Assembly (NCBI GenBank): GCA_965218585.1
Contig: CBDCLE010000009.1
Span: 1-64,000 of the forward strand
Direction: 5' to 3'
Length of the DNA: 64,000 nt
Origin: Terriglobia bacterium
GTDB taxonomy: Bacteria; Acidobacteriota; Terriglobia; 20CM-2-55-15
This document shows positions 15,978-39,246 of the stretch, piece after piece. Within the stretch, counting starts at the first letter, position 1. The number at the start of each line of letters is the position of its first letter. Position numbers and translations under genes: made by a program. The notes beneath the pieces are model-generated. The model was not told the DNA's origin. It saw only the letters and a list, made by a program, of their open reading frames with translations, and did no database searches.

Positions 15978-16949
15978 ATGATGCGAAAAGTAAAGATGAT
16001 CGGATTGGCTGGCTTGTCGCTTCTGATGATGATGACGATCGCGGGATTTGGGGTCCCGGCGTCCGCTCAGGAAGTGGATTTTTCAGGAGAATGGCTGGAC
16101 GACTCTTACGAGGGAGATGATCGCGGAGGGCCCTCAACCGCGCTTCGATTCACCAGCCTCGGAAGGCCGAGAGAGGGCATTGGGGTCGATCCGATATCTG
16201 ATGCGATGCTGGGAAACTATCTGGGGATTCCCTACAACGATGCCGGGCGGCAGAAGGGCGCGACCGAGGACCTGGGTATCTATTCCCATCCCGCCGTAAT
16301 GATGCGCCCTCACCCGATTCAGTACTCCATGCGCGGCGTTATCGGCCAGTGGCGGATGTTGAAGGTCACAGATCCGCAGACCGGACTGCTTGTGGCGTAC
16401 AGAGTCACCGGGGGGTACAACCTGGACCGGATGATCTGGATGGACGGGAGGGAACATCCCCCAGATTACGCAGAACACACCTACCAGGGCTTCTCGACGG
16501 GCCGACTCGAGCGTGGGATGCTGGTCGTTACCACCACTCACATAAAGCTCGGATATCACAAGCGGAACGGCGCTCCAGCTAGTGACAAGTCAGTGCTGAC
16601 GGAATATTTTATCCGCCACGGCAACACTCTGACCCACGTTCAGTTCACGGACGATCCGGTGTACCTGGAAGAGCCCTATATCCGCACCACGGATCACGTT
16701 TTGGTGTCCAACCGCTTTGCCCGGACTGCACGTGCCTTCTGGGACAATTCCGAGGAAGTCGTGTGGGATGAGGGGTACCTGCCTCATTTCCCGCTCGGAA
16801 CCCAGCACACCGAAATGGCGGACCGCATCGGCATTCCTTTCGAAACGACACAAGGCGGTGCCGAAACGCTGTATCCCGAATACCGGACAAAGCTCCGTCA
16901 GTTGATCCGCCAGCCCAACGGGGATGACACTCAGGCTTCGGAAAGGTGA
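15978..16949 (+). CDS. Secreted hypothetical protein, family A copy 1
   Basis: Signal peptide ASA|Q; DFSGEW, GNYLGIPYNDAG, RPHP, IWMDGR-HPP, GFSTG, VVTTTH, RNG, DPVYLEEP, LYPEYR shared with 7 paralogues. Confidence 0.9.
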   Translation: MMRKVKMIGLAGLSLLMMMTIAGFGVPASAQEVDFSGEWLDDSYEGDDRGGPSTALRFTSLGRPREGIGVDPISDAMLGNYLGIPYNDAGRQKGATEDLGIYSHPAVMMRPHPIQYSMRGVIGQWRMLKVTDPQTGLLVAYRVTGGYNLDRMIWMDGREHPPDYAEHTYQGFSTGRLERGMLVVTTTHIKLGYHKRNGAPASDKSVLTEYFIRHGNTLTHVQFTDDPVYLEEPYIRTTDHVLVSNRFARTARAFWDNSEEVVWDEGYLPHFPLGTQHTEMADRIGIPFETTQGGAETLYPEYRTKLRQLIRQPNGDDTQASER

Positions 16950-16952
16950 GGC

Positions 16953-18002
16953 GTGTTTATGGGTTCAACAACGGGTAGACGTTCTTTTGATTGCTGGAAA
17001 CCTGGACATTTCCTTCTGAGGTTTGTTGTTCTGACCGGCCTCGTGGTCGCGTTGGCGTCACCTGCCCCCGCCGGGCAGGACCATCCCAGCCTGGATTACG
17101 ATGCCGACACACCGATTGACGTGATGCACGTGAAGGGCCAAGTGTACATGATCGTAGTGGGCGGTGCCCACGGTGTGAACATCGCGGCACAGGTCGGAGA
17201 TCAAGGCATTTTTCTGGTGGACTCGGGGCCTCCCGCTCTCAGTGACAAACTGCTCGAGACGCTTCGGGAAGAGTTTGACGACAAACCGGTGCGTTTCCTG
17301 TTCAACACCCACTCCCATGGAGACCACACGGGAGGCAACCTGCGTCTCGCCGAAACTTTCGGCACGGAAGGCAACAATCCGAATGCATTCGGTGGCGTGA
17401 AGATCGCTTCGCGCCTGAATACCCTCAACCGTTTGGCTGGCTACACGCGGGACGAGAGTGATGTGATTCCCGAGTTGGGGCTTCCCTACGGGGCGTTTTT
17501 CGGCGAGAGGATGGACTTCTATCTCAATGATAGGCCGGTCATGGTGCTGGCCGCGCCTTCTGCGCACACCGACGGCGATGCGATCGTGTGGTTTCCGGGC
17601 TCCGATGTGGTTGCGACCGGCGACACGTTCGTCCTGGATCAGTATCCCATCATTGATTCCGAAAGGGGCGGAAGCATTCAAGGGTTCCTAGATGTGGCAA
17701 AACGAATCGTCGACGACATCACGGTCGCAGACGTTTTCGCAAGTGGCGGGACCCGCGTCATCCCGGGTCACGGCCGGCTGGCCAACGAAGCCGAAGTCAT
17801 GGACTACCTTCTGATGCTGACCGTGATCTGGGAACGCGTCGAATCGATGGTGGATGAGGGGATGACGCTGGAGGAGGTGAGGGCTGCCCGTCCGACGCTT
17901 GAGTACGATGGCATGGCCGGTGGAGATAAGGAATACTGGACCGCTGAGATGTTTCTGGAAGCTGTCTATCAGGAAGCCGTTGCCAACCGAGCTGCGCGTT
18001 AA
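16953..18002 (+). CDS. Secreted MBL-fold metallo-hydrolase, copy 1
   Basis: LVDSG, THSHGDHTGGN, AHTDGD, TGD, IPGHG. Confidence 0.9.
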   Translation: MFMGSTTGRRSFDCWKPGHFLLRFVVLTGLVVALASPAPAGQDHPSLDYDADTPIDVMHVKGQVYMIVVGGAHGVNIAAQVGDQGIFLVDSGPPALSDKLLETLREEFDDKPVRFLFNTHSHGDHTGGNLRLAETFGTEGNNPNAFGGVKIASRLNTLNRLAGYTRDESDVIPELGLPYGAFFGERMDFYLNDRPVMVLAAPSAHTDGDAIVWFPGSDVVATGDTFVLDQYPIIDSERGGSIQGFLDVAKRIVDDITVADVFASGGTRVIPGHGRLANEAEVMDYLLMLTVIWERVESMVDEGMTLEEVRAARPTLEYDGMAGGDKEYWTAEMFLEAVYQEAVANRAAR

Positions 18003-18035
18003 GAGTGAATGTCGATTGATTGAGGAGGCGTAGGA

Positions 18036-18935
18036 ATGAATCCTGGAACGTTGTCCACCGACATTGTCGGTTCGCGATCCTATGCCGTCGTGCTGGGACT
18101 TCTGATCGCTGTAGTTTTTTCGGCGGTGACGGCCCTCGCACAACGCGGCGTGACGGGCCCTGTGTCTGCGACCCCCAGGGCGATCGCGCCGATTGACGTT
18201 ACGGGAAACTGGGTGGCTGTGATCACCGAGGATTGGCGGGTGCGTATGATCACGCCGCCGCGAGGGGATTTTCTGAGTATTCCGCTCAACGATGCAGGTA
18301 TTGAGACGGCGCTGGCCTGGGACCCGGAAGCGGATACCGCAAACGGCCTGGAATGCAAAGCGTTTGGTGCGGCTGCCATCATGCGCATGCCCACTCGGAT
18401 CCGGATTGATTGGACAGACGACGACACGCTGCGGTTCGATTTTGATTACGGACAACAGTCACGGCTGGCGCATTTTGACCCGACTACTCCGACGGGAGAA
18501 CGGTCGTGGCAGGGACAGGCCCTCGCCGAGTGGATCGATGTAGAGACCGCGCGCAATGCCGCTCCGGAGGTTCGGATCGGCGAGTTGGTTGACCCGGATG
18601 AAGATGGAAGCGCTGGACTGGGCACCCCTCGAGTGCGGTCCCCGCAACGCGGAGGCCTGCGGCTCGTCACCACGAACCTGCTACCTCAGTACCAGAGACA
18701 GAACGGTATCCCCGTCAGCGAGAACGCCGTTGTCACCAATACGATGGATATCGTTGCCGGTCCGGGCGGGGAGGATTGGCTGATCGTTACAACCCAGATC
18801 GAGGATCCCCAGTACATGACGGCCGTCCGAAAGACAAGCGTGCAGTTTAAGCGAGAGCCCGACGATTCCAACTGGAATCCGGTGCCCTGTGCGGTGGAGC
18901 TACCCCCGGTTCCCCGCATTCCCGTACAGCGATAG
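18036..18935 (+). CDS. Secreted hypothetical protein, family C copy 1
   Basis: PIDVTGNWVAVITEDWRVRM, PLNDAG, ECKAFGA, WQG, RQNG, EDPQY, W-P-PC. Confidence 0.88.
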   Translation: MNPGTLSTDIVGSRSYAVVLGLLIAVVFSAVTALAQRGVTGPVSATPRAIAPIDVTGNWVAVITEDWRVRMITPPRGDFLSIPLNDAGIETALAWDPEADTANGLECKAFGAAAIMRMPTRIRIDWTDDDTLRFDFDYGQQSRLAHFDPTTPTGERSWQGQALAEWIDVETARNAAPEVRIGELVDPDEDGSAGLGTPRVRSPQRGGLRLVTTNLLPQYQRQNGIPVSENAVVTNTMDIVAGPGGEDWLIVTTQIEDPQYMTAVRKTSVQFKREPDDSNWNPVPCAVELPPVPRIPVQR

Positions 18936-19062
18936 GTCGGTTGAGCACGGATCCGAAATTCGTTCGCCATACAATACGGGATACGCCCACGAGGGACTTG
19001 GGGCCCTCGGCTGAACGGTGTATTCTTTAAGGGATACTGCTAACCGGTAGGGAGTACAGACG

Positions 19063-20022
19063 ATGCGTATGAAGGAAACGATTCGGCGGATAGGTGTTCT
19101 GTCACTTCTGATAGTCCTGGCGCCTGCAGGATTTATGATGCCAGCCGTCGCGCAGCAAACCGACTTCTCAGGAGAGTGGTTGGACAACTCCTATGAGGAG
19201 GATGATCGGGGAGGGCCGCGAACGGCGTATACGACGACCACACTTGGGAGACCGCGGGAAGGCATCAACCTCGAACCGGTATCGGACGGGATGTTGGGCA
19301 ACTATCTGGGGATCCCATTCAACGACGCCGGCCGTCTGAAGGCCGCCACCGAGGACCTTTCCGTCCATTCTCATCCGGCAATCCAGATGCGCCCCCACCC
19401 GGCCCAGTACTACATGCGGGGCGTCATCGGGCAGTGGAGAATGGAGAAGGACGTCGATCCGCTGACCGGACTTCTCACTGCGTACCGAGTCGTGGGAGGT
19501 TTTGGCCTGGGTCGGACGATCTGGATGGACGGACGTCCCCATCCTCCCGACTACGCCGAACACACCTATCGCGGTTTCTCAACGGGCCGATTCGAGCGCG
19601 GCATGCTGGTCGTCACGACGACGCACATGAAGCTTGGATATCACAAGCGTAACGCGGCCCCTGCCAGCGATCAGGCCACGATGACCGAATATTTTATCCG
19701 CCACGACGACCGGCTGACCCACGTCCAGTTCACCGAGGACCCGGCGTACCTGGAAGAACCGTTGGTTCGAACTCTGGATCACGTCCTGGTACCCACTCGG
19801 TTCGCGACGAACCGTCGCACCTTCGCGGCTGCCGAAGAGGAGATCGTGTGGGATGACGGTTACCTCCCACATTACCCACTGGGAACACGGCACACCGAGT
19901 TTGCGGATCGGATTGGAATTCCGTTCGAGACGACCCAGGGCGGTAGCGAAACCATGTATCCGGAATACCGACGGAAGCTCAAAGAGATGATGACGAGTGA
20001 ATCAGACGGGACGGGCAATTAG
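19063..20022 (+). CDS. Secreted hypothetical protein, family A copy 2
   Basis: Same family A motifs; signal peptide AVA|Q. Confidence 0.9.
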   Translation: MRMKETIRRIGVLSLLIVLAPAGFMMPAVAQQTDFSGEWLDNSYEEDDRGGPRTAYTTTTLGRPREGINLEPVSDGMLGNYLGIPFNDAGRLKAATEDLSVHSHPAIQMRPHPAQYYMRGVIGQWRMEKDVDPLTGLLTAYRVVGGFGLGRTIWMDGRPHPPDYAEHTYRGFSTGRFERGMLVVTTTHMKLGYHKRNAAPASDQATMTEYFIRHDDRLTHVQFTEDPAYLEEPLVRTLDHVLVPTRFATNRRTFAAAEEEIVWDDGYLPHYPLGTRHTEFADRIGIPFETTQGGSETMYPEYRRKLKEMMTSESDGTGN

Positions 20023-20024
20023 AG

Positions 20025-21026
20025 GTGACTGGCTTTCTGTTGAATCGAGTCGTTCGGCGTTCACTCCTGGTGTCGATTCTCTTCTTCGGACTGGCCATCG
20101 GGGCCCAAGCGCGCCAGGACCATCCCAGCCAGAACTATGACGCGGACACCCCGATCGATGTGCTGCACGTGAGAGGGCAAGTGTACATGGTGGTCATCGG
20201 TGGTGCGGACGGAGTCAACGTCGTAGCGCAGGTGGGCGACGATGGCATATTCCTTGTGGACTCCGGGCCGGCCGCTCTCGCCGACAAGCTGATCGAAACG
20301 CTTCGGGAAGAGTTTGATAATAAACCGGTGCGGTTTCTCTTCAACACTCATTCCCACGCCGATCACGCAGGCGGTAATCAGGCGCTGGCCCAAACGTTTG
20401 CCGACAATGTATTTGGCGGTGTCAGGATAGCCGCGCATGTGAACACGCTCAATCGGCTGAATGGTTACACGCGGGACGAGCGGGATGTGATTCCCCCCGA
20501 AGGCCGTCCGTTTGGATCGTTCTATCTCGAACGGCTGGATTTTCACCTCAATGGTGAGCCCATTGTGGCGTTGTCCACACCCTCGGCGCACACCGATGGC
20601 GATGCGATCGTCTGGTTTCGGGGATCCGACGTCGTTGCCACCGGTGATGCGTTCGTGATGGGTCAGTTCCCGATCCCTGATTCCGAGCGCGGTGGGAGCC
20701 TTCAGGGTTTGACCGATGCGGCCAGGTTTCTGGTAGACGACATCGCAGTCTCAGAGGTGTGGGCCAGCGCGGGGACCCGTCTGATTCCGGGTCACGGGCG
20801 TTTTGTCAACGAGGCAGAGGTGATGGATAGCCTCCTGATGTTGACGATAGTTCAAAGTCGCATCCAGGAGATGGTCGACGAGGGAATGGACCTCGATGAG
20901 GTCAAGGTGGCTCGACCGACACTGGATTATGATGTGACCATGCACGGTGACAAGGAGTTCTGGACGACCGACATGTTTGTGGAAGCCGTCTACCGGGACA
21001 TCACTGGAAGCCCAGATGCGCCATAG
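20025..21026 (+). CDS. Secreted MBL-fold metallo-hydrolase, copy 2
   Basis: THSHADHAGGN, AHTDGD, TGD, IPGHG. Confidence 0.9.
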   Translation: MTGFLLNRVVRRSLLVSILFFGLAIGAQARQDHPSQNYDADTPIDVLHVRGQVYMVVIGGADGVNVVAQVGDDGIFLVDSGPAALADKLIETLREEFDNKPVRFLFNTHSHADHAGGNQALAQTFADNVFGGVRIAAHVNTLNRLNGYTRDERDVIPPEGRPFGSFYLERLDFHLNGEPIVALSTPSAHTDGDAIVWFRGSDVVATGDAFVMGQFPIPDSERGGSLQGLTDAARFLVDDIAVSEVWASAGTRLIPGHGRFVNEAEVMDSLLMLTIVQSRIQEMVDEGMDLDEVKVARPTLDYDVTMHGDKEFWTTDMFVEAVYRDITGSPDAP

Positions 21027-21062
21027 AGCTGTTTGTACAGAAATTTTTGGGAGGGAAGCAAG

Positions 21063-21470
21063 ATGAACCGCATTAGTGTTTTTTTGATCGCTGCAGTGAT
21101 GTTGGTCGGAGGAGTGAGTGCGTATTCCCACCATTCGGCTGTTGCGATCTACGACGTGGCCGATGAGGCCGAAATCCAGGGCGAGCTCGTCCAGATCTCG
21201 CTTCGAAACCCGCATTCCTATGTTTATGTGAATGCGCCGGACGCGGATGGCGAGATTCGGCGTTGGGGAATCGAGTGGGGCGGTGCGCGTCAGCTGACCG
21301 AGCAAGGAGCAGCAGCTGCGTTCAAGGTCGGAGACGAAGTCGTCGTTATAGGGAACCCCGGCCGGAACGCGCGTGATCGAAGGTTACTGATGGTTTCCAT
21401 CGTTCGTCCATCGGATGGATACAGTTGGGGTCTGGCCTCAGACGAAGTCATTCCAGGCGTCGGCCGATAG
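21063..21470 (+). CDS. DUF6152-like secreted protein (family D), copy 1
   Basis: Signal peptide AYS|HHS, YD, RNPHS, WGIEWG, GDEVVVIGNPGR. Confidence 0.8.
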   Translation: MNRISVFLIAAVMLVGGVSAYSHHSAVAIYDVADEAEIQGELVQISLRNPHSYVYVNAPDADGEIRRWGIEWGGARQLTEQGAAAAFKVGDEVVVIGNPGRNARDRRLLMVSIVRPSDGYSWGLASDEVIPGVGR

Positions 21471-23458: not shown

Positions 23459-23460
23459 AA

Positions 23461-23485
23461 CTGTAGGTGCGGTCTATGACCGCAC
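23461..23485 (+). repeat. GTAG-type REP
   Basis: CTGTAG-GTGCGGTC-TAT-GACCGCAC hairpin; recurs several times in the window. Confidence 0.8.
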
Positions 23486-23596
23486 GTCTTATATGTAGAA
23501 TCACCGATTCTTCAGCGACAGATGCCGCGTACAGGAGAAGGTGGTGCGTTTTACGCCTTCCGAGAGCGCAGGTATAATAACGTTCCAGGCAGATAC

Positions 23597-24942: not shown

Positions 24943-24970
24943 AAAAAGCCCGGCCAGGAGCCGGGCTTTT
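24943..24970 (-). terminator. Rho-independent terminator after MBL copy 3
   Basis: AAAAAGCCCGGC-CAGGA-GCCGGGCTTTT. Confidence 0.7.
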
Positions 24971-24992: not shown

Positions 24993-25982
24993 CTACTCGC
25001 TTCGGCTGACGCCTCGATAGACAGCCTCGATAAACATATCCGTCGTCCAGGTCCCGGTGTCGGAACCGTATCGAGCGTCATAATCCAGGGTCGGTCGGGC
25101 GGCCTTCACTTCCTCCAGCGTCATGCCTTTTTCGGCCAGGTCCTGAATCCGGTCGCGGATCATAGTAACCATGTACCTGTAGTAGGCGACGTCGCCCTGG
25201 TCTAAAAGCCGGCCGCGGCCGGGGATGATCAGGGTGCCGTCTTCCTCGAGATACTGGACCACCGCGATTTCGGTAATCTTGTTCAGGGCTGCGACGACGC
25301 CGTTGATGCTGCCGCCGCTGGCCTCGTCGATAAAGGGGTAGCGCGTCGTGTCGATGACGTCGCCCGTACTGATGACGTCAGACCTTCGGAAAAACACCAC
25401 ACTGTCGCCATCGGTGTGGGCTTCGGGCTGGTGAAAGATTTCGACGGCTTCGCCGTTGAAGTAGAATTCGTGCCTGCCTATAAAATACGAATCCGTCGGC
25501 GTCGCCTCATACGGCAGAGACACGTCGGTGGCTCTGACGATCCTTAAGAAAGCGTTCTCATGCGTAAGGATCGCGGCCCCTTCCCGGCCCGAGAAGTTGC
25601 CGCCGAGTATCGCGTCACCCGTGAACCGGAGCGTCGGAACACCCCCGACGGCGTCTTCGTGGTTGTGAGTGAGAATGATCTGGCGAATGGGTGCATCGGA
25701 AAATTCACGGATGGCTGCGAGCGCCCCATCGCTCATCGATCCACTTCCCGAATCCACAAGCAACAGTCCGTCCCGACCCATTTGAACCGTGATGTTGCTG
25801 CCAGCACCGCTCACCATGTAAATATTGTCCCGGACCGGGATCACTCTGATCTCTTGCCCGCCGGCGGCGGAGCCTTGACCGGGGGCAGCATGGACATTCA
25901 TTCCCGTGAGGGCCCACACGAGCACCAAGGCCATCGTCGCTGAGAGTCTGAGTCGTGTTTTCGTCATAATTCTCTTCTGCAC
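24993..25982 (-). CDS. Secreted MBL-fold protein, copy 3, with a degenerate metal site
   Basis: GSNIT, LVDSG, AHTDGD, STGD, RPTLDYD; has THNHEDA and IPGRG instead of HxHxDH and PGHG. Confidence 0.88.
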   Translation of the reverse strand: MQKRIMTKTRLRLSATMALVLVWALTGMNVHAAPGQGSAAGGQEIRVIPVRDNIYMVSGAGSNITVQMGRDGLLLVDSGSGSMSDGALAAIREFSDAPIRQIILTHNHEDAVGGVPTLRFTGDAILGGNFSGREGAAILTHENAFLRIVRATDVSLPYEATPTDSYFIGRHEFYFNGEAVEIFHQPEAHTDGDSVVFFRRSDVISTGDVIDTTRYPFIDEASGGSINGVVAALNKITEIAVVQYLEEDGTLIIPGRGRLLDQGDVAYYRYMVTMIRDRIQDLAEKGMTLEEVKAARPTLDYDARYGSDTGTWTTDMFIEAVYRGVSRSE

Positions 25983-27882: not shown

Positions 27883-27910
27883 AAGCCCGGCATCCAGCCG
27901 GGCTTTTTTT
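27883..27910 (+). terminator. Rho-independent terminator
   Basis: AAGCCCGGC-ATCCA-GCCGGGCTTTTTTT. Confidence 0.8.
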
Positions 27911-29137: not shown

Positions 29138-30109
29138 ATGATGAGTATGGCGAAGGTGATCGGACTGATAAGTCTGTCCGTTCTCGTTGTGATGGCCATG
29201 GGGTTTGCTACCCAGTTGTCTGCTCAGAGGGGCGGCGGAGGTGCTGCCGGCGTAATCGATTTTTCTGGCGAGTGGGTCGACAACTCGTTTGAAGAGGACG
29301 ATCGCGGCGGGCCCCTCACTGCGGGTCCGAGTCGAGCGAACGGGCTCCAGCCCGATGCGTGGCTCGGCAACTACCTGGGCATACCGTACAACGATGCCGC
29401 AAGGCAGAAGGGCAATACCTTTGATCTTGGCATCTACTCCCATTCCGCATGGATATTCAGGCCGCACCCTGTTCAGTATTCGATGCGCGGCGTGATCAAC
29501 AACTGGAGGATGATGAAAGAAATACATCCGGTGACCGGCCAGTTAGTTGCGTATCGAATTACAGGTGGTTACAACCTCGACCGCGTCATCTGGATGGATG
29601 GACGTCCACGCCCGCCCGACTATTCTGAATACACCTACAACGGATTTTCGACCGGACGGTTCGAGCGCGGAATGCTAGTCGTGACGACCACGCACATGAA
29701 GCACGGCTACCATAAACGTAACGGCGCTCCGGCGAGCGATCAGGCGACGATGACCGAACACTTCATCCGCCACGGAGACCGGCTGACGATCGTGCAGTTC
29801 ACCGATGATCCAGTGTATCTCGAAGAGGCCTACGTTCGCACGGGGGATCACGTTCTGGTGCGCAATCGGCAGGCGGCAAGTCCGACCGGCCGAAGAAACG
29901 TCTGGAACGCGGCTGAAGAGGTCATATGGGACGAGGGCTATCTTCCGCATCACCCGTTGGGTACCCGGCACTCGCAGCTTTCCGATTGGCTCGGGATTCC
30001 CTTTGAGGCCACTCAAGGGGGGAGCGAAACGCTCTATCCTGAATACAGGCAAACATTGAAGCAGTTGATGAGCGAATCCGGGACAAGCGGATCCGACGGG
30101 GGGAGGTAG
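29138..30109 (+). CDS. Secreted hypothetical protein, family A copy 4
   Basis: Family A motifs; GGAG RBS; LSA|QRGGGG. Confidence 0.9.
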   Translation: MMSMAKVIGLISLSVLVVMAMGFATQLSAQRGGGGAAGVIDFSGEWVDNSFEEDDRGGPLTAGPSRANGLQPDAWLGNYLGIPYNDAARQKGNTFDLGIYSHSAWIFRPHPVQYSMRGVINNWRMMKEIHPVTGQLVAYRITGGYNLDRVIWMDGRPRPPDYSEYTYNGFSTGRFERGMLVVTTTHMKHGYHKRNGAPASDQATMTEHFIRHGDRLTIVQFTDDPVYLEEAYVRTGDHVLVRNRQAASPTGRRNVWNAAEEVIWDEGYLPHHPLGTRHSQLSDWLGIPFEATQGGSETLYPEYRQTLKQLMSESGTSGSDGGR

Positions 30110-30117
30110 GAGAGTCG

Positions 30118-31136
30118 ATGAAACGCGCCATGAAAGTGAAGATGAAGTGCGGGGCGGCCCGGTTGTTGTCCCTGGTGGTGACCCTTTGGGTCATCCTTGT
30201 GTTACCTGCTGATGCACAGCGGGCTCATCCCAGCGAGTCGCTGGGTGGAAATACTTCGATCGATGTCGTCCACGTACAGGGACAGGTCTACATGCTCATC
30301 ATCGGCGGCGTGGACGGAGTGAACGTCACGGCGCAGGTCGGCGAACAGGGGATTTTCCTCGTGGATTCGGGTCCGGCCGCGCTGGGCGATCAGTTGCTGG
30401 AAACCATCAGCGAGGAGTTCGACGGCAGGCCCGTCCGCTACCTGATCAATACCCACTCCCACGCCGATCACACCGGAGGCAATCTCGCGCTTGCAGAAGA
30501 GTTCGGGACCGAACTCAATAATCCAAACGCGTACGGTGGTGTCCGGATCGTGTCGCATCTGAACACGATCAATCGAGTGAGCGGATTCAGCCGGAACGAA
30601 AGGGACATCATTCCCGAGGTGGCGCGTCCCTATGCGGGATTTTTTCACCGAGAGAATGGATTTTTTACCTGAACGGCGAAGCGGTCGTGGCTCTCTCGAC
30701 GCCGCCTGCACACACCGATGGCGACGTGATGGTCTGGTTCAGAGGTTCCGACGTTCTCGCTTCGGGTGATGCTTTCGTAATGGGGCATTATCCGGTGATC
30801 GATGCCGACCGGGGTGGCAGTCTTTACGGCCTGATCGACGCCGCCACACAGATCGTGGACGACGTTGCCGTTTCAGAGATCTTTGCGAGTGGTGGGACGC
30901 GTATCGTCCCGGGCCACGGGCGCTTGACCAATGAGGCCGAAGTTCTGGACTACCTGCTGATGCTGTCCGTTGTCCGGGACCGCGTTCAGGAGATGGTCGA
31001 CGACGGGATGACGCTCGAGGAAGTCAAGACGGCACAGCCGACATTGGACTACGATGGTGTCTTCAAAGGAGACAGGGATTTCTGGACGGCGGAGATGTTT
31101 CTCGAGGCCGTCTACCAGGAAATTGCAGCGAACTGA
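30118..31136 (+). pseudogene. MBL-fold metallo-hydrolase, copy 4, split by two +1 T-homopolymer frameshifts
   Basis: T6 runs at 30640-30645 and 30661-30666; removing one T from each restores GFFTERMDFYLNGE, matching the paralogues; all metal motifs intact. Confidence 0.8.
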
Positions 31137-31190
31137 GTCGGGAAGTTTGAATTCGTAATTTTGAGTATTGTTCTTTAAGGAGGGAAAGAA

Positions 31191-31598
31191 ATGAACCGTT
31201 ATTGGGCTGTTTTTGGGATCGCAGTCGTGGCATTCCTCGCCAGCGGGATGGTGGCCTACTCGCACCATGCTGCCGCGGCTGTGTATGACATTGCGGATGA
31301 GGCCGAGATCGAAGGCGAACTCGTCCAGATTGCTCTCAGGAATCCTCATTCCTGGATCTGGGTGGATGTCGCCGATGCGAGTGGTGAAACCACACGCTGG
31401 GGCGTCGAATGGGGTGGTGCTCGCCAACTGCTGCAGCAGGGAGTCGATTCGTTCCGGGTTGGCGATGAAGTGGTCGTCCTGGGCAACCCTGGTCGAAACC
31501 CCAGGGACCGCCGGATGCTGATGCTTCAGATTGTTCGTCCGGCGGACGGGTATAGCTGGGGCACAGGTGAGGGCGAACAAATTCAAGGCGCTCGGTAA
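31191..31598 (+). CDS. DUF6152-like secreted protein (family D), copy 2
   Basis: AYS|HHA, RNPHS, WGVEWG, GNPGR. Confidence 0.8.
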   Translation: MNRYWAVFGIAVVAFLASGMVAYSHHAAAAVYDIADEAEIEGELVQIALRNPHSWIWVDVADASGETTRWGVEWGGARQLLQQGVDSFRVGDEVVVLGNPGRNPRDRRMLMLQIVRPADGYSWGTGEGEQIQGAR

Positions 31599-31623
31599 AA
31601 ACAGACTGAGGGGAGATCGAGGG

Positions 31624-32493
31624 ATGAATCGGTATAAGCGAAGTGTGTCGGCTTTGACCTTTCCGATGGTCGGCGTCCTTGTTCTGGTTGCTGCCGCCAT
31701 GACGACTGATGCCTGGGGGCAGCGTGGCGCGGGTGGTCCGGTTGGAGGTACGGCCCAGGTGCGGGCGCCGTTCGATGTGACCGGTTACTGGGTGACGGCG
31801 ATAACTGAAGACTGGCGCGTGAGGATGATCACACCTCAACGCGGAGATTTTCTTGGACTGCCTCTGAATGAGGCGGGTATCGAGCTGGCGAACGCGTGGG
31901 ACCCGGAAGCCGATATGGCGAACGGTGACGAGTGCCGGGCTTTCGGTGCCGCGGCTATCATGAGAAGCCCCACGCGAATACACGTCACCTGGGAGGACGA
32001 GAACACGCTCCGGTTTGAGTTCGACCATGGAGATCAGACCCGCATGGTCTATTTCGATCAGTCGATGTTACCGGGCGAGCGTTCCTACCAGGGCCACGCC
32101 ACCGCCGAGTGGATCGATACGCGCGTGCCAGCCCGTGGGGGATTCGCCGGCCGCGGCGGTGGATTTCCGGATGTCGAGCCGGGTTCAGGTCCCCCGAGAC
32201 CGGGCGGCTTGGAGGTCGTCACGACGAACCTGCTACACCAGTATCACCGGCAGAATGGAACACCGGTCAGCGAGAATGCCGTTGTGACCGATCAGATCGA
32301 TCTTGTTGCCGGACCGGCCAATCAGGACTGGCTGATCGTCAAGACCATCATCGAGGATCCTCAATACATGTTTTCTCCGATGGTCACCAGCGCGCAGTTC
32401 AAACGGGAGTCCGACGATTCCAACTGGAACCCGCAACCCTGTCAGGTCGAACTGCCGTTCGAATCAAGGCTTCCGAACCTGAGGCTCAACTAG
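31624..32493 (+). CDS. Secreted hypothetical protein, family C copy 4
   Basis: Family C motifs. Confidence 0.88.
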   Translation: MNRYKRSVSALTFPMVGVLVLVAAAMTTDAWGQRGAGGPVGGTAQVRAPFDVTGYWVTAITEDWRVRMITPQRGDFLGLPLNEAGIELANAWDPEADMANGDECRAFGAAAIMRSPTRIHVTWEDENTLRFEFDHGDQTRMVYFDQSMLPGERSYQGHATAEWIDTRVPARGGFAGRGGGFPDVEPGSGPPRPGGLEVVTTNLLHQYHRQNGTPVSENAVVTDQIDLVAGPANQDWLIVKTIIEDPQYMFSPMVTSAQFKRESDDSNWNPQPCQVELPFESRLPNLRLN

Positions 32494-32510
32494 CAGAACC
32501 GTCACTTCCT

Positions 32511-32575
32511 CTGTAGGTGCGGTCTATGGCCGCACAAAAAAAAGAGATGGGCGTTCATAGAGCGCCCCCCCAGTT
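32511..32575. repeat. REP doublet (REPIN-like), degenerate
   Basis: CTGTAGGTGCGGTCTATGGCCGCAC plus inverted partner GGGCGTTCATAGAGCGCCCC..CAG. Confidence 0.7.
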
Positions 32576-32604
32576 CATGCTGACTGTCCGTTAGGAGAAT
32601 AACG

Positions 32605-33528
32605 ATGCGTATGGCGAGGCTGATCGGACTCGTTGGGCTGTCCGTTCTGGTCCTGGCTGGAATGGGGTCCCCGAGTGAGGCTTCGGCTCAGGCCGTCATC
32701 GATTTTTCGGGCGAGTGGCTGGACAACTCGTTTGAATCGGACGATCGGGGAGGTCCGCCCCGGCTGGGCTTGATTGCGAATGGCTACGACTCGCTGCCGG
32801 GCAACCTCCTGGGGTTACCCTATAACGACGCCGGACGACAGAAGGCCGCCACCTCGGACATGGCCATCTACTCCCATCCGGCCTGGATATTCCGGCCCCA
32901 CCCGATCCAGTATTCCATGCGTGGTTTTGGCCTCGGCAGCTGGAGGATGATCAAGGAAATCGATCCCGAAACGGGGCGTCTCTTAGCGTATCGTGTGACC
33001 GGAGGATACAACCTGGACCGCCTTATCTGGATGGACGGCCGTGAGCGCCCGCCCGACTATGCCGAGCATACGTACACCGGCTTTTCCACCGGCCGGTTCG
33101 AGCGCGACATGCTGGTCGTGACGACCACGCACATCAAACATGGGTACCACAGGCGAAACGGGTCTCCGGCCAGCGACCAGACGAGGATGACGGAATACTT
33201 CATTCGTCACGGCGATCGGATGACGCATGTTCAGTTCACTGAGGATCCGATTTATCTCGAGGAGCCGCTCGTCCGCACGACGGATCACATTTTTGCGCCA
33301 ACGCGTCAAGCCGGTACATTTCGTGCCCGCAGCCTCTGGAACACCGGCGAAGAAGTCATGTGGGACGAGGGCTACCTTCCGCACTATACCCTGGGCACTC
33401 CTCACACGCAGATCTCAGATTGGCTCGGGATCCCCTATGAAACAACGTGGGGAGGCAGCGAAACGCTTTATCCCGAATACCGGGAAAAGCTGAGGCAGCT
33501 GATGAGCGAGTCCGGAGGGGCAAGGTAG
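32605..33528 (+). CDS. Secreted hypothetical protein, family A copy 5
   Basis: Family A motifs; AGGAG RBS. Confidence 0.9.
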   Translation: MRMARLIGLVGLSVLVLAGMGSPSEASAQAVIDFSGEWLDNSFESDDRGGPPRLGLIANGYDSLPGNLLGLPYNDAGRQKAATSDMAIYSHPAWIFRPHPIQYSMRGFGLGSWRMIKEIDPETGRLLAYRVTGGYNLDRLIWMDGRERPPDYAEHTYTGFSTGRFERDMLVVTTTHIKHGYHRRNGSPASDQTRMTEYFIRHGDRMTHVQFTEDPIYLEEPLVRTTDHIFAPTRQAGTFRARSLWNTGEEVMWDEGYLPHYTLGTPHTQISDWLGIPYETTWGGSETLYPEYREKLRQLMSESGGAR

Positions 33529-33536
33529 CGGGCTTG

Positions 33537-33565
33537 TGTAGGTGCGGTCTATGACCGCACCTACA
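33537..33565. repeat. Collapsed palindromic REP
   Basis: TGTAGGTGCGGTC-TAT-GACCGCACCTACA. Confidence 0.8.
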
Positions 33566-33597: not shown

Positions 33598-34515
33598 ATG
33601 CATATCGTGAAGGTGATTGGACTCTTCGGGCTGTCCCTTGTTGTCATGATTGGAATGGGGCCAGGCACTGAGGCCTCGGCTCAGGGGATCATCGATTTTT
33701 CGGGAGAATGGCTGGACTATTCGTTTGAGGAAGACGATCGGGGAGGACCGCCGAGATTGGGTCGAACCGCGGGTGGAGTTGACTCGCTGCCCGGCAACTA
33801 CCTGGGGTTGCCTTACAATGATGCCGGACGCCGGAAGGGCAACGCCATGGACATTTCCATTTATTCCCATCCGGCCTGGATGTTCCGACCGCACCCGATC
33901 CAGTATTCCATGCGCGGTTTCGGCCCCGGTGCGAGTTGGAGGATGATCAAGGAAATCGATCCGGAAACGGGGCGTCTCTTAGCGTATCGTGTGACCGGGG
34001 GATACAACCTGGACCGCCTGATCTGGATGGACGGCCGCCCGCATCCCCCGGACTATACCGAGCACACGTACAGCGGCTTTTCCACGGGACGGTTCGAGCG
34101 GGACATGCTGGTCGTGAGGACAACGCACATCAAACATGGATACCACAAACGGAATGGAGCCCCGGCCAGCGACCAGGTGACTCTGACGGAGTATTTCATC
34201 CGCCACGGCGACCGGATGACGCACGTTCAGTTTACCGAGGACCCGATCTACTTCGAGGAGCCTCTGATCCGCACGACCGATCACATCTTGGCGCCGACGC
34301 GTCAGGCTGGAACTGTGCGTTCCCGCAGAAACCTCTGGAACGCACCCGAAGAAGTCCTCTGGGAAGACGGCTACCTTCCGCATTATCCATTGGGTACGAG
34401 CCACACGCAGATCTCGGACTTTCTCGGGCTTCCCGTTGAAACGACGGGAGGAGGAAGCAAAACACTCTATCCCGAATACCGGGAACAGCTAAGGCAGGTG
34501 ATGAGTGAACCTTAA
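33598..34515 (+). CDS. Secreted hypothetical protein, family A copy 6
   Basis: Family A motifs; GGAGGAG RBS. Confidence 0.9.
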   Translation: MHIVKVIGLFGLSLVVMIGMGPGTEASAQGIIDFSGEWLDYSFEEDDRGGPPRLGRTAGGVDSLPGNYLGLPYNDAGRRKGNAMDISIYSHPAWMFRPHPIQYSMRGFGPGASWRMIKEIDPETGRLLAYRVTGGYNLDRLIWMDGRPHPPDYTEHTYSGFSTGRFERDMLVVRTTHIKHGYHKRNGAPASDQVTLTEYFIRHGDRMTHVQFTEDPIYFEEPLIRTTDHILAPTRQAGTVRSRRNLWNAPEEVLWEDGYLPHYPLGTSHTQISDFLGLPVETTGGGSKTLYPEYREQLRQVMSEP

Positions 34516-34574: not shown

Positions 34575-34581
34575 CTCTTGT

Positions 34582-34640
34582 CTGTAGGTGCGGTCTATGA
34601 CCGCACGAATAGATCGGACGCTTATAGAGCGCCCCTACAG
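34582..34640. repeat. REP doublet (REPIN-like)
   Basis: CTGTAGGTGCGGTCTATGACCGCAC...GGACGCTTATAGAGCGCCCCTACAG. Confidence 0.8.
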
Positions 34641-34669
34641 TTGTTGATTTGTCTGGGAGGAGAAACACG

Positions 34670-35626
34670 ATGCATGTCGTGAAGGTGATTGGACTGGTTG
34701 GGCTATCCGTTCTTGTCCTGACCGGAATGGGGACAGCCAGTGAGGCTTCAGCTCAGGGGATCATCGATTTTTCGGGTGAGTGGCTCGACAATTCGTTCGA
34801 ATCGGACGATCGCGGAGGACCCCCGCGGCTCGGCTCGTTTGGATCGCGGGACGTCACCCGAGGTGGGGACGGGGTCGATGCGCTGCCGGGCAACTATCTG
34901 GGGATACCTTACAACGATGCCGGACGGCGAAAGGCCGCTGCCATGGACATGTCCATCTACTCCCATCCAGCCTGGATGTTCCGGCCGCACCCGATTCAAT
35001 ACTCCATGCGCGCTTTTGGCCCCGGTGCGAGTTGGAGGATGATCAAGGACGTCGATCCGGAAACAGGCGGTCTCGTTGCGTATCGCGTCACCGGGGGATA
35101 CAACCTGGACCGTATTATCTGGATGGACGGCCGTGGGCATCCTCCTGCTTACGCCGAGCATACGTACGACGGCTTCTCCACCGGCCGGTTCGAGCGGGAC
35201 ATGCTGGTCGTGACCACGACACATATAAAACATGGGTATCACAGGCGAAACGGGTCTCCCGCGAGTGACCAGGTTACGCTGACTGAATACTTCATTCGTC
35301 ACGGCGACCAGATGACGCACGTTCAGTTCACTGAGGACCCGGTTTATTTCGAGGAACCGTTCGTTCGTACGACCGATCACATATTGATGCCAACCCGGCA
35401 TGCCGGGGTGTTTCGTGCGCGCAACCTGTGGAACGTCGCCGAAGAGGTCTTGTGGGAAGAGGGCTACCTTCCGCACTATCCTCTGGGAACCCGTCACACG
35501 CAGACTTCGGATTTTCTCGGGATTCCCGTTGAAACGACAGGGGGAGGCAGCGAGACGCTCTATCCCGAATACCGGGAAAAGCTGAGAGAGTTGATGAGTG
35601 AGCCTGATACTGTGGACCTGAGATAG
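34670..35626 (+). CDS. Secreted hypothetical protein, family A copy 7
   Basis: Family A motifs; GGAGGAG RBS. Confidence 0.9.
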   Translation: MHVVKVIGLVGLSVLVLTGMGTASEASAQGIIDFSGEWLDNSFESDDRGGPPRLGSFGSRDVTRGGDGVDALPGNYLGIPYNDAGRRKAAAMDMSIYSHPAWMFRPHPIQYSMRAFGPGASWRMIKDVDPETGGLVAYRVTGGYNLDRIIWMDGRGHPPAYAEHTYDGFSTGRFERDMLVVTTTHIKHGYHRRNGSPASDQVTLTEYFIRHGDQMTHVQFTEDPVYFEEPFVRTTDHILMPTRHAGVFRARNLWNVAEEVLWEEGYLPHYPLGTRHTQTSDFLGIPVETTGGGSETLYPEYREKLRELMSEPDTVDLR

Positions 35627-35646: not shown

Positions 35647-35685
35647 AAAAAGGGCTGCGGGTTAGTTCTCTGCGGTCCTTTTTTT
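35647..35685 (+). terminator. Rho-independent terminator
   Basis: AAAAAGGGCTGCGG...CTGCGGTCCTTTTTTT. Confidence 0.7.
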
Positions 35686-35937: not shown

Positions 35938-36861
35938 ATGATCATGCGTATTGGAACTGTAATGGGCCTTGTAGCGTTCTCTTTTCTCATTGTCATGACG
36001 ATGGGTTCGAACACGCCGGTGTTTGGCCAGGTGGTCGATTTTTCTGGAGAGTGGCTGGACAACTCGTTTGAAGAAGACGATCGCGGAGGACCCGCTACGG
36101 CTGCCTCGAGAGCTTCGTCGAGAGTGCTTTCCGACGGGATGATCGGCAATTACCTGGGGATCCCGTACAACGATGCCGGGCGTCAGAAGGGCGCCAGTTA
36201 TTCCCTGTCCATGTTCAGCCATCCTGCGGTCAAGTTTCGGCCCCACACGATGCAGTATTCCATGCGAGGCGTGATCGGCAATTGGAGGATGTCGAAGGTT
36301 GTGGACCCGGTAACAAAGGTGCTGGTTGCCTACAGGATAGAAGGGGGCTACAACCTGGATCGCACGATCTGGATGGACGGCCGGGGGCACCCACCCGACT
36401 ACGCCGAGCACAGCTATGTCGGTTTCTCGACTGGTCGGTATGAGCGCGGCATGCTGGTGGTGACAACCACACACATGAAGTTCGGGACACACAAGCGCAA
36501 CGGCGCCCCGGCCAGTTCCGAGGCGACGCTGACGGAATACTTTATCCGCCACGGCGACCGGCTAACGCATGTCCAGCTCACCGACGATCCGTCCTACCTG
36601 GAAGAACCCTACATCCGGACGACGGATCACATACTGGCTGTCGGTAGGCACGCTCGGGGAAACCAAAGGAACCTCTGGAACACGAGCGAAGAAGTTGCAT
36701 GGGAGGATGAGTATCTGCCTCACTTCCCCCTCGGGACCCGCCATACTGATCTGGCAGATATGCTCGGGATTCCGTTCGAAACGACGCAAGGCGGGAGTGA
36801 GACGCTTTATCCCGAATACCGGACCAAGCTCCGGGAGATGGTCAACGAGAGGGTGCGTTAA
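35938..36861 (+). CDS. Secreted hypothetical protein, family A copy 8
   Basis: Family A motifs; GGAG RBS before ATG 35938. Confidence 0.9.
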   Translation: MIMRIGTVMGLVAFSFLIVMTMGSNTPVFGQVVDFSGEWLDNSFEEDDRGGPATAASRASSRVLSDGMIGNYLGIPYNDAGRQKGASYSLSMFSHPAVKFRPHTMQYSMRGVIGNWRMSKVVDPVTKVLVAYRIEGGYNLDRTIWMDGRGHPPDYAEHSYVGFSTGRYERGMLVVTTTHMKFGTHKRNGAPASSEATLTEYFIRHGDRLTHVQLTDDPSYLEEPYIRTTDHILAVGRHARGNQRNLWNTSEEVAWEDEYLPHFPLGTRHTDLADMLGIPFETTQGGSETLYPEYRTKLREMVNERVR

Positions 36862-36867
36862 AGCCTG

Positions 36868-37910
36868 ATGGAGCGAGGAATGGGTCGAAACTCGGTAGCG
36901 AAATCGGGACCTGGCATCGTAGCGCTGACCTTCGCCCTGTCCTTCATGCTCAGCCTGCCTGCGCCATCCGACGCGCGGCAAAACCACCCCAGTCTGGCGT
37001 ACGACGCTGCTACTCCGATTCACGTCATGCATGTGAGGGCAACGTGTACATGTTGGTTGTCGGCGGTGCCGATGGAGTTAACATCGCAGCGCAAGTTGGG
37101 GATCAAGGCATTTTTCTGGTGGATTCGGGCCCAGCGGTGCTCGCAGACAAACTGCTTCAGACCCTTCGGGAAGAGTTCGGTGACAAGCCGGTCCGTTTTC
37201 TGATCAACACTCATTCCCATGCCGACCACGCGGGGGGGAATCTGGCCCTTGCGGAAACCTTCGGTACAGAGCTCAACAACATTCCCGGTAATCCATTGCC
37301 GGGTGTCGGTATCGATTCCCATGAAAACACGCTCAACAGGTTGAGCGGTTACACGGACGACCAGCGGGACGTGATTCCGATCGACGCTGCACCCGGTGTG
37401 TCTTTTTATACGGAAAGGATGGATTTCTTTCTCAACGGTGAGCCCATCGTCGCCTTCTCAGCTCCTTCGGCCCACACCGACGGAGACGTGATGGTGTGGT
37501 TTCGAAGTTCTGATGTTCTGGCTGCGGGTGACGTATTTGTGATGGGAAACTACCCCGTCCTCGATGCTTCACGCGGCGGAAGCCTGGGTGGTCTGATCAG
37601 TGCCGCTGACCACATTGTCGACGACATTGCGGTCGCTGAGGTCTATGCCAGTTTCGGAACCCGGATCATTCCAGGACACGGTCGCTTGACGAACGAAAGC
37701 GAAGTTCTGGATTACCAACTCATGCTGACTGTGATTCGAGACCGCGTCCAGGACATGGTTGATCAGGAGATGAGTCTGGACGAGATCAAGGCCGCGCGGC
37801 CGACTTTGGATTACGATGCAGTCTACGGCAGGAACAAGCCGTTCTGGACACCGGAAATGTTTCTCGAAGCCGTCTATGAAGATGCGGTTAGGAACCGCCA
37901 AGCAGATTAA
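36868..37910 (+). pseudogene. MBL-fold metallo-hydrolase, copy 5, split by a -1 G-homopolymer frameshift
   Basis: GTGAGGGCAACGTG near 37037; adding one G gives HVRGNVYM as in the paralogues; THSHADH, AHTDGD, PGHG intact. Confidence 0.8.
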
Positions 37911-37958
37911 AGATCATCAAGTTTGAACCTTTTTCTTTCGTAAAGGAGGAAAACGAGA

Positions 37959-38360
37959 ATGAATCGTATCGTTGTTCTGATCGCTGTTGCGGTCGTGCTG
38001 GTTTGGACGGCGAGTGCATACTCCCACCATTCGGCGTCCGCCGTCTATGACGTTTTGGACGAGATGGAGATCCAGGGCGAAATCGTCCAGGTCTCGCTTC
38101 GGAATCCTCATTCCGCAGTCTTTGTGGAGGCGCCGGACGAGAACGGAGAAATGACGCGTTGGGGTGTTTCCTGGGGCGCGGCTACACGGTTGAGGGCTCA
38201 GGGAGGCGACAACTTCCGAGTGGGAGACCAGGTGGTGGTTACCGGTAACCCGGGACGCAATGCCGCGGATCACAGATTGCTCATGATTTCCATCGTCCGT
38301 CCGTCGGACGGATTGAGCTGGGGCCTCGAAGCGGGACAGGAAATCCAAGGCGCCCGGTAG
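37959..38360 (+). CDS. DUF6152-like secreted protein (family D), copy 3
   Basis: AYS|HHS, RNPHS, WGVSWG, GNPGR; AAGGAGG RBS. Confidence 0.8.
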   Translation: MNRIVVLIAVAVVLVWTASAYSHHSASAVYDVLDEMEIQGEIVQVSLRNPHSAVFVEAPDENGEMTRWGVSWGAATRLRAQGGDNFRVGDQVVVTGNPGRNAADHRLLMISIVRPSDGLSWGLEAGQEIQGAR

Positions 38361-38373
38361 GGGAAGACGCAGC

Positions 38374-39246
38374 ATGAATGGGCGAATACAGTCGAAACGT
38401 AAAGGTGAGTTGTCTCGAGTGGCCATCGCAACAGGACTTTTCCTTGCGCTTGGCATGTGGTCGACAACTGTAGATGTTCTGGCACAGCGTAGGGTTCCCC
38501 TAACGCCTCAGGCAATGGCCCCGGTTGATGTAACCGGTTACTGGGTTACAGCGATAACCGAGGACTGGCGGGTGCGCATGATGACTCCCCAACGGGGAGA
38601 TTTTCTAGGGCTTCCGCTCAATCAGGCAGGCATCGACCTTGCGAACGGCTGGGATCCGGACGCGGACATAGCGAATGGGAACGAATGCAGAGCGTTCGGA
38701 GCCGCCGGCATCATGCGAAGTCCCACTCGGATCCACATCATCTGGGAGGCCGAGAACACGCTTCGAATGGAATTCGATCATGGCCAACAGACGCGCCTGG
38801 TTTACTTCGATCAATCGACGCCTGCGGGTGAACGTTCGTGGCAAGGCCACGCTCTGGGCGAATGGGTCGACATGACACCGCCCGGAGGCGCCGGCCGTGG
38901 CAGAGGCGGTCGCGGTGGAGGTGGCGACGGTGCCGGCATTGGTTTCGGAAGACCTGGAGCTTTGCAGGTCGTTACGACTAACCTGCTGCATCAGTATCAC
39001 CGTCAGAATGGGACCCCCGTCAGCGAGAACGCGATCGTCACCGACATAATCGATCTTATTCCGGGTCTGGGCGGGGGAGAATGGCTGATCGTGAAAACGA
39101 TGATCGACGATCCCGAGTATATGTTCTCTCAGATGGTGACCAGTTCGCAGTTCAAGCGGGAGCCGGACGATTCCAAATGGGATCCGCAACCCTGTGCGGT
39201 TGAACTGCTTTTCGAGTCGCGCCTTCCGAATCTGAGACTTGACTAG
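38374..39246 (+). CDS. Secreted hypothetical protein, family C copy 5
   Basis: Family C motifs; closest to copy 4. Confidence 0.88.
   Translation: MNGRIQSKRKGELSRVAIATGLFLALGMWSTTVDVLAQRRVPLTPQAMAPVDVTGYWVTAITEDWRVRMMTPQRGDFLGLPLNQAGIDLANGWDPDADIANGNECRAFGAAGIMRSPTRIHIIWEAENTLRMEFDHGQQTRLVYFDQSTPAGERSWQGHALGEWVDMTPPGGAGRGRGGRGGGGDGAGIGFGRPGALQVVTTNLLHQYHRQNGTPVSENAIVTDIIDLIPGLGGGEWLIVKTMIDDPEYMFSQMVTSSQFKREPDDSKWDPQPCAVELLFESRLPNLRLD

Follow-up and report, generated by a model that had tools for sequence, protein, structure and literature searches.

An amplified array of a conserved, putatively periplasmic cassette of barrel-like, metallo-beta-lactamase-fold and DUF6152 proteins in a Terriglobia bacterium

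Why would a bacterial genome hold, almost side by side, 21 genes for putatively exported proteins that fall into four gene types and recur in much the same order? The question is posed by positions 15978-39246 of a 64,000-nucleotide stretch from a Terriglobia bacterium (GenBank assembly GCA_965218585.1, contig CBDCLE010000009.1, positions 1 to 64,000; hereafter, the window, meaning the whole stretch analysed). The genes comprise 8 of type A, 5 for metallo-beta-lactamase (MBL) fold proteins (M), 3 for DUF6152 proteins (D) and 5 of type C. The original prediction, made from the letters and open reading frames (ORFs) of this DNA, took the four proteins to act as one periplasmic complex or pathway. 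Our preferred reading, to which we assign a probability of roughly 0.4, is that the array arose by recent amplification of a conserved and so far unnamed periplasmic cassette, which consists of A, MBL, an optional DUF6152 protein and C, in that order, and would work as a barrel-plus-MBL hydrolase unit with a metal-binding accessory.

The ORF listing and the translations resolve the array into the modules A1-M1-C1, A2-M2-D2-C2, the divergent M3<-A3<- ->C3, A4-M4-D4-C4 and A8-M5-D5-C5, with the extra genes A5-A7 ahead of the last module; the series is interrupted by four unrelated genes recognized with Pfam, namely, STAS, DinB-like, TPR-methyltransferase and FkbM-methyltransferase genes. The gene counts and the modules agree with the original prediction, all of them lying where it had placed them or close by, and the gaps within co-directional modules, which it had called short, measure 2-40 nt. 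It had also proposed signal peptides throughout, and all 21 products indeed start with a Sec-type signal peptide-like N-terminus, judged by eye from the translations; all parts of the cassette look exported. PF00753 matches all five MBLs (59.8 bits for M1, 81.5 for M2, 45.9 for M3, 52.7 for the first piece of M4 and 68.7 for the second piece of M5; cut-off 22.7), and PF19649 matches all three D genes (66.3, 69.5 and 59.5 bits for D2, D4 and D5, respectively; cut-off 27). The direct-repeat families of the window are cassette paralogues with 60-87% nucleotide identity. The array is far beyond chance.

The four families named at the outset stand as gene types but collapse into only three superfamilies. 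In a profile-profile comparison (hhalign), A and C align over 186 columns with a probability of 99.9% (E 9.8e-35), and each also aligns with "e", a set of barrels of about 280 residues with weak similarity to A that partner DUF6152 (A versus e, E 1.6e-25; C versus e, E 3.5e-20, with one A fragment taken out of the e set). By this measure, A, C and e are a single calycin-like barrel superfamily within which A and C are paralogues. What sets A apart from C is a C-terminal tail, conserved and about 80 residues long, and C is marked by a conserved Cys pair; a G-x-W motif lies on the first strand of the barrel. None of the 13 A and C proteins has a Pfam match at E<=0.01, one e protein has none at E<=1, and the A and C representatives compared with NCBIfam have none at E<=0.1 save MelC1 on A3, a candidate dismissed at 20 bits against a cut-off of 120. 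Searches of the PDB by sequence with A1 and with the A, C and D profiles gave nothing better than E 0.3. The expectation that A and C would match no characterized system is borne out for sequence searches of these three databases. A search of the ESM Atlas returned DUF6152 clusters and unnamed clusters only, and the C family comprises 2215 cluster representatives at E<=1e-3.

The AlphaFold model of A (predicted local distance difference test, pLDDT, 69.3; alignment of 30 sequences) resembles, over residues 31-245, the barrels of the FABP/CRBP/nitrobindin/NanoLuc type, with 20 chains at Z>=5 and a best Z of 7.5 (root-mean-square deviation, rmsd, 3.0; 116 residues aligned). The matches include nanoKAZ (Z 7.5), CRBP-IV (Z 7.4) and nitrobindin (Z 6.5). 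A calycin-type barrel is a plausible, not a firm, assignment for the modelled fold of A, which would place it beside FABP/CRBP, nitrobindin, lipocalins and NanoLuc; unlike these, A has no sequence relationship to Pfam, NCBIfam or PDB entries, is twice the size of FABP and contains large insertions.

Conserved synteny outside this genome, which would be expected of a genuine cassette, is readily found. The A profile, run over species-representative genomes, retrieved at least 604 relatives in 612 candidate stretches, and the best 80 loci were analysed. By label, 66 of these loci come from Acidobacteria lineages (Vicinamibacterales, Bryobacterales, Terriglobia and others), 7 are proteobacterial and 1 is from Acidimicrobiia; the labels of 6 of the 80 look like mis-binned metagenome-assembled genomes. 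The loci contain 94 A units, including 25 single-frame A::MBL fusions and 51 units directly followed by an MBL gene; altogether, an MBL is fused to, or lies within 3 kb of, 83 of the 94, and the same distance takes in C for 49 units, DUF6152 for 13 and e for 12. A and MBL are a single evolutionary unit, whether adjacent or fused. The comparison supports the view that the cassette is real and conserved beyond its own genome and that its genes are functionally linked. Among proteins of 567-2000 residues, there are 1856 A relatives, and the best 120 of these are 115 A-MBL, 4 C-A and 1 A-C proteins. In 25 of these 120 (for example, P0335, P0338, P0354 and P0390, from metagenomes), the A-MBL protein is 746-795 residues long and has a third domain of about 130 residues that starts DPF(D/E)G.WVLN; this domain gives a weak Lipocalin_4 match (E 0.006, under the cut-off).

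The same gene types are abundant elsewhere in the genome that carries the array. Hidden Markov models built from the window copies and run over all stop-to-stop ORFs of the 4.55-Mb genome detect 29 A, 1 A::MBL, 20 cassette-type MBLs, 19 C, 56 D, 10 D::e and 40 e, about 175 ORFs, and A-M-C modules, with or without D, occur in at least 14 further places. The sole A::MBL fusion of this genome, a protein of 637 residues (contig C2:21410-23320), has N-x-N-x-D-H instead of HxHxDH, with a C gene upstream and a D gene downstream. Across 15 modules of the genome, the identity-distance matrices of the families are strongly correlated (Mantel r 0.91 for A-M, 0.77 for M-C and 0.79 for A-C, each reached by 0 of 5000 permutations; a broken module at contig C3:10366-13368 was left out), in line with a congruence among families, which the original prediction had proposed as a check. 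The correlation indicates that the modules duplicate as units. Much of the signal comes from a young clade, with 55-78% identity, formed by window modules 1, 2, 4 and 5 together with the module at contig C26:140807. Further congruent pairs join contigs C7 and C17 (72-78%) and, for A and M only, contigs C1 and C11. Window module 3 pairs with contig C24:297589-300630, which has the same divergent layout: the A and C genes of the two are reciprocal nearest relatives, and the M of contig C24 is nearest to that of module 3, M3 itself being nearest to C26b.

Within the taxonomic family, A is present in 24 of the 34 other genomes, and there are 33 A matches in the genome of the window versus 4-9 in its four congeners, which makes the window array a species-level amplification. 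DUF6152 occurs in 17 of 31 related genomes; outside the family but within the class, a match is present in only 1 of 12 genomes. Each of the 4 same-genus genomes has at least 112 matches, and the sister genomes have 45 to more than 112 each. A and DUF6152 are present in the same seven genera, and four genera without A (g4, g5, g10 and g11) have 0-3 DUF6152 matches, a comparison among kindred genomes that is no independent statistical test. At the level of the phylum, A was found at E<=1e-20 in 3 of 201 evenly drawn genomes, including that of the window, a rough figure given that 11 candidates were scored per genome.

To which branch of the MBL fold do the cassette proteins belong? Compared with the PDB, the MBL profile best matches 8d2z_A, an unnamed MBL (E 2.4e-22), for which a literature search under 8D2Z turned up nothing related, and then Sfh-I/CphA-type B2 lactamases, BJP-1, BcII, the chlorothalonil dehalogenase Chd and alkylsulfatases. 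The class B metallo-beta-lactamases and the 8d2z protein have in common with the cassette MBLs the fold, the ligand set HxHxDH...H...D...H and export, which for the cassette MBLs is predicted. An explanation to be weighed is that the cassette MBLs merely hydrolyse antibiotics or signals, as class B beta-lactamases and acyl-homoserine-lactone lactonases do, and that A, C and D are unrelated neighbours co-amplified by chance. The profile does match PDB lactamases of subclasses B2, B1 and B3, at E 3e-12 and weaker, as well as the class B core model, but every class B model of NCBIfam scores far under its cut-off: the best subclass models for M1, M2 and M3 reach 24-37 bits against 200-240, among them bla_subclass_B1 at 31 against 200 and bla_subclass_B3 at 32 against 240. 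Moreover, the A-MBL link is conserved across phyla and often takes the form of a fusion, and A, M and C co-diverge. Unlike class B lactamases, the cassette MBLs also have an additional helical region of about 80 residues at the C-terminus, have altered ligands in most members and are tied to barrels. We regard chance co-amplification beside ordinary hydrolases as very improbable.

Among the named models of NCBIfam, the SoxH-like TIGR04559 scores best for all 29 cassette MBLs compared, in each case below cut-off. For the window MBLs, the SoxH-like models (TIGR04558/TIGR04559) give 63-69 bits where the cut-off is 280 and 46-56 bits where it is 300, so that the cassette MBLs are not members of the SoxH-like family; by these profile scores, they are nearest to a SoxH-like and class-B-lactamase-like branch. 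The SoxH-like proteins, represented by PP_2678 of the Pseudomonas putida ped cluster, and the cassette MBLs are both exported MBL-fold proteins, and both tend to sit near pyrroloquinoline quinone (PQQ) dehydrogenases and c-type cytochromes. They differ in company: in an excerpt of PMC12997753, SoxH-like genes travel with SoxYZ-like and rhodanese genes, and the cassette MBLs travel with barrels. The same excerpt describes the SoxH-like proteins themselves as uncharacterized.

The metal-binding residues divide the family. The ligands HxHxDH, H, D and H are complete in 4 of the 5 window MBLs (M1, M2, M5 and, with its two pieces joined, M4), and in M3 two of the seven ligand columns are occupied by A and R. 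All seven canonical ligands are kept in 33 of the 82 complete MBLs of the foreign loci and in 9 of 18 in the genome of the window; a recurrent variant reads S/N-x-D-x-D-H and retains the other ligands. With ligands lost in most MBLs, many members of the family may not be zinc hydrolases, a caution against "metalloenzyme" as a family-wide label, and a non-catalytic binding or metal- or redox-handling role becomes a strong rival. Under such a role, the barrels and the MBL-like protein would bind or carry a redox-active small molecule or a metal, free or chelated, with DUF6152 as the metal-binding partner, in the service of metal acquisition, buffering or electron relay. The 49 of 82 foreign MBLs that are short of one or more canonical ligands point in this direction, as does the nearest NCBIfam neighbourhood of the MBLs, that is, uncharacterized SoxH-like proteins of a "quinoprotein relay system" (29 of 29 MBLs, below cut-off). 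So do the PQQ dehydrogenases and c-type cytochromes found nearby, at 6818-9328 in the window, in 7 of the 80 loci and in 4 D/e neighbourhoods of the same genome. Yet a full two-metal site persists in 4 of the 5 window MBLs and in 40% of the family, which would be costly to keep without catalysis; tens of diverged copies per genome would be unusual for metal homeostasis; and no membrane permease is conserved beside the cassette in the 80 loci. We hold non-catalytic handling to be a doubtful but serious contender.

The DUF6152 proteins bear on this alternative as well. In the genome of the window, 70 places score above the PF19649 cut-off, and 63 of 66 DUF6152 copies contain HH[S/A/G/N/T], which in all but about 2 of the 63 directly follows, by eye, a signal-like stretch ending in small-x-small; the mature protein is predicted to begin with His-His. 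Along the mature chain, only His1, His2, Pro28 and His29 are invariant (47 sequences, mean identity 25%), the invariance of His1 and His2 being partly a matter of construction because the paralogues in the alignment were chosen by their HH motif. That the invariant residues are three histidines and a proline only would suit a handling protein. So would the precedent of exported proteins with an N-terminal His (DUF4198, DUF6702 and the "anglerases"), which bind or sequester metal without enzyme activity according to PMC12537917.

In CopC, YcnI, the histidine brace of LPMO, DUF4198, DUF6702 and the anglerases, as predicted for DUF6152, cleavage of the signal peptide leaves His as residue 1, and there is a further conserved His; the principle of such N-terminal-histidine metal sites is set out in parts of PMC12537917 and PMC10952591. 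DUF6152 is absent from the main text of the former, the "signal-strapping" paper on N-terminal-His metalloproteins, the supplement of which may list it, and a literature search for DUF6152 and PF19649 found no paper naming either. The N-terminal-histidine metal binders named above are beta-sandwiches, in contrast to DUF6152, with its His-His doublet, N-P-H and a modelled fold that is an oligonucleotide/oligosaccharide-binding (OB) fold. The D model (pLDDT 90.7) has the element order three strands, helices, two strands; it matches PriB (4apv; Z 10.2, rmsd 2.6, 81 aligned) and SSB (4dam_A; Z 9.4, rmsd 3.3, 87 aligned), and its first ten residues lie outside the OB core. CusF and other periplasmic metal-binding OB proteins are not among the fold matches listed for D, though a likeness may exist. 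CusF is a small periplasmic OB-type barrel that serves as a copper chaperone and hands the metal to a partner, in which it would be like DUF6152. It binds copper through Met, His and Trp inside the barrel, unlike DUF6152, with its predicted N-terminal His-His.

DUF6152 pairs with barrels: 27 of the 40 e genes adjoin a D gene, and there are 10 more D::e fusions, so that the pairing is supported by fusion. D is always the N-terminal part of these fusions, and its amino terminus therefore stays free. For D and C, a complex prediction with mature D2 and residues 36-280 of C2 (partner pLDDT >=78) gave scores of 0.01, 0.36 and 0.34 in its runs, with a median of 0.34 against 0.00 for the best control; the range of scores up to 0.60 took in 18 of 157 solved complexes and every mismatch that passed (2 out of 215), and the prediction lends weak support to a D-C association. 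DUF6152 is an optional member of the cassette. The single complex or pathway of the original prediction is supported for A and MBL, by fusion and conserved linkage, but not to the same degree for D, with its optional presence and weak predicted association with C.

The free amino terminus invites a further possibility, namely, that DUF6152 and a barrel (C or e) form an oxidative copper enzyme with a histidine-brace-like centre at His1 and the substrate held in the barrel, A-MBL acting on the product. The predicted mature His-His N-terminus with a third invariant His, the fixed N-terminal place of D in the D::e fusions and the D2-C2 median above its best control are consistent with such an enzyme. 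Nevertheless, the OB barrel is a fold unlike that of any known histidine-brace protein, no copper-handling genes are seen in the window, and the D2-C2 score lies in a range that is more often wrong than right. We consider a copper oxidase of this kind improbable.

How, then, might a barrel-plus-MBL hydrolase unit operate? A would dock on the MBL through its C-terminal tail, and the A and C barrels would hold a small, probably hydrophobic, organic ligand, which they would pass to, or take from, the two-metal centre of the MBL for hydrolysis wherever that site is intact. DUF6152 would bind a metal ion at its free amino-terminal His-His and serve the unit as a metal donor or buffer or as a redox partner, and the many diverged copies would widen the range of ligands. 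In MBL-type alkylsulfatases (SdsA1, Pisa1 and YjcS), an MBL catalytic core is joined to a separate SCP2-like domain, which accommodates the hydrophobic portion of the substrate. They are the nearest precedent for how the cassette might work and give weak sequence matches with the cassette MBLs (2cfu, E 5.7e-9; 4pdx; 2yhe), with the difference that the ligand-holding part of the cassette is a calycin-like barrel, N-terminal to the core or encoded by a separate gene, and that of the alkylsulfatases is a C-terminal SCP2 domain.

Several observations weigh against the hydrolase unit. Ligands are lost in most MBLs of the family, S/N-x-D-x-D-H variants or worse being common, and a comparison across loci revealed no pattern relating the ligand type of an MBL to the presence of D or C nearby. 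DUF6152 is missing from most foreign cassettes, occurring near 13 of the 94 A units, and from 2 of the 5 window modules. The A model is of moderate confidence at its pLDDT of 69.3, its Z scores, below 8, lie in a common range, and the best Foldseek E value is 0.02. Finally, the 80 loci have no transporter, regulator or pathway enzyme in a conserved place next to the cassette: when 410 neighbour ORFs were clustered across these loci in search of a fifth conserved gene, no family appeared in more than 7 of them, so that nothing points to the substrate. The commonest neighbours are PQQ dehydrogenases with a cytochrome c domain (7 of 80), TonB-type outer-membrane barrels (6), molybdenum hydroxylases (6) and MacB-type permeases (4); periplasmic oxidoreductases and outer-membrane barrels are thus weak but recurrent company.

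The hydrolase unit could be part of something larger. In a more speculative version, which we think unlikely, the cassette is a new modular periplasmic metalloenzyme in which interchangeable calycin-barrel subunits (A, C and the tandem A proteins) each take up different small organic molecules and plug into a shared MBL core and the His-His OB protein loads or tunes the metal; together with about 50 DUF6152-barrel pairs of the same genome, it would make up a large, unrecognized enzyme system with which soil Acidobacteriota process diverse small molecules outside the cytoplasm. Whichever biochemistry applies, the array encodes a real, conserved and apparently undescribed system of putatively exported proteins that is locally amplified in this species. 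The cassette families have thousands of relatives in metagenomes; A and C are nameless in databases, A, C and D are without a solved relative by sequence, and no literature on them was found. A function assigned to any of them would serve to annotate a considerable part of what abundant soil bacteria export and would place both the MBL fold and N-terminal-histidine metal sites in a new context. The coordinates of the array are collected in Table 1.

Table 1. Genes and palindrome copies of the array, in window positions
Feature	Position	Strand	Description
A1	15978-16949	+	exported calycin-like barrel (both predicted) with C-terminal tail; without Pfam/NCBIfam family
M1	16953-18002	+	exported (predicted) MBL-fold protein, all seven canonical ligands; PF00753 E 4.4e-16; TIGR04559 69 bits versus 280
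C1	18036-18935	+	exported (predicted) barrel, A paralogue, conserved Cys pair; no Pfam family
A2	19063-20022	+	72% identity to A1
M2	20025-21026	+	MBL, canonical ligands; PF00753 E 1e-22
D2	21033-21470	+	DUF6152, PF19649 E 2.7e-18; predicted mature N-terminus His-His at 21129
C2	21415-22332 (probable start 21490)	+	
M3	24993-25982	-	divergent MBL; PF00753 E 8.2e-12; ligand string HHDA-H-D-R
A3	26005-26847	-	divergent A, old module type
C3	26986-27864	+	C of module 3, transcribed divergently
A4	29138-30109	+	
M4	30118-31136	+	MBL; split in assembly by two single-base insertions in T6 runs
D4	31191-31598	+	DUF6152, PF19649 E 2.6e-19
C4	31531-32493 (probable start 31621)	+	
A5	32605-33528	+	extra tandem A; 85-87% nucleotide identity to A6 and A7 over 300 nt
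A6	33598-34515	+	extra tandem A
A7	34649-35626	+	extra tandem A
A8	35938-36861	+	
M5	36868-37910	+	MBL; split in assembly by one indel in G run near 37036
D5	37959-38360	+	DUF6152, PF19649 E 3.6e-16
C5	38374-39246	+	
REP-like palindrome copies	23460-23488, 32510-32538, 33535-33563, 34581-34609, 39305-39333		

Two of the MBL genes are broken in the assembly. Two T6 runs (30640-30645 and 30661-30666) each contain a surplus T that disrupts the frame of M4, and a 3626-nt contig from an independent sequencing run, X2, has one letter fewer at 30640 and one fewer at 30661, with 3 other letters differing from the window over 30000-32997. Without the two extra letters, the frame is restored, and M4 is whole in a near-identical strain; errors of assembly, or very recent events, probably account for the breaks seen here. 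M5 is interrupted by an indel in the G run, and no contig bridging the site at about 37036 is among the metagenome contigs listed, those of run X1 ending at 30644/30662 and 36988. The sequencing runs listed as containing this DNA include none of RNA.

The original prediction also had several modules ending in terminators. Between 15500 and 35400, there are 23 terminator-like hairpins versus 16.0 +/- 3.4 in shuffled sequences, and the proposal is only partly borne out, several of the hairpins being copies of a repetitive extragenic palindrome (REP)-like element. This palindrome, of about 29 nt with the stem GTGCGGTC...GACCGCAC, lies in gaps 3' of several cassette genes, and its 27-nt core has about 66 approximate matches genome-wide. 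At the REP-like sites, metagenome contigs pile up and break, with a depth of 21-58 versus about 3-5 elsewhere. Divergent module 3 is flanked, at 24943-24970 and 27883-27908, by near-identical GC hairpins followed by T runs (AAGCCCGGC...GCCGGGCTTTT), which look like bidirectional terminators.

The surroundings of the array are varied. Directly downstream, at 39432-40744, are genes for the beta and alpha subunits of nitrile hydratase (Pfam E 4.7e-34 and 7.6e-89), and at 41136-43421 there is a DUF5916 protein of 761 residues, whose family, with 8 ORFs in the clusters of neighbours, ranks among the most frequent companions of D/e pairs elsewhere in the genome. An IS256/Mutator-family transposase is encoded at 61852-63150 and has eight relatives near D/e pairs, which marks the paralogue islands as transposon-rich. 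Upstream, at 6818-9328, a PQQ dehydrogenase adjoins a di-haem c-type cytochrome, and a second PQQ-like propeller lies at 12436-13746. Between these lies a serine beta-lactamase-like ORF (10166-11320) that the Pfam profile matches only from position 65 and that an ORF at 10035-10442 overlaps; its N-terminal part may be in another frame, with a possible frameshift. A cupin ORF (46370-47497) and an alpha/beta-hydrolase ORF (47139-48320) overlap by about 360 nt in different frames, through either overlong start calls or a frameshift.

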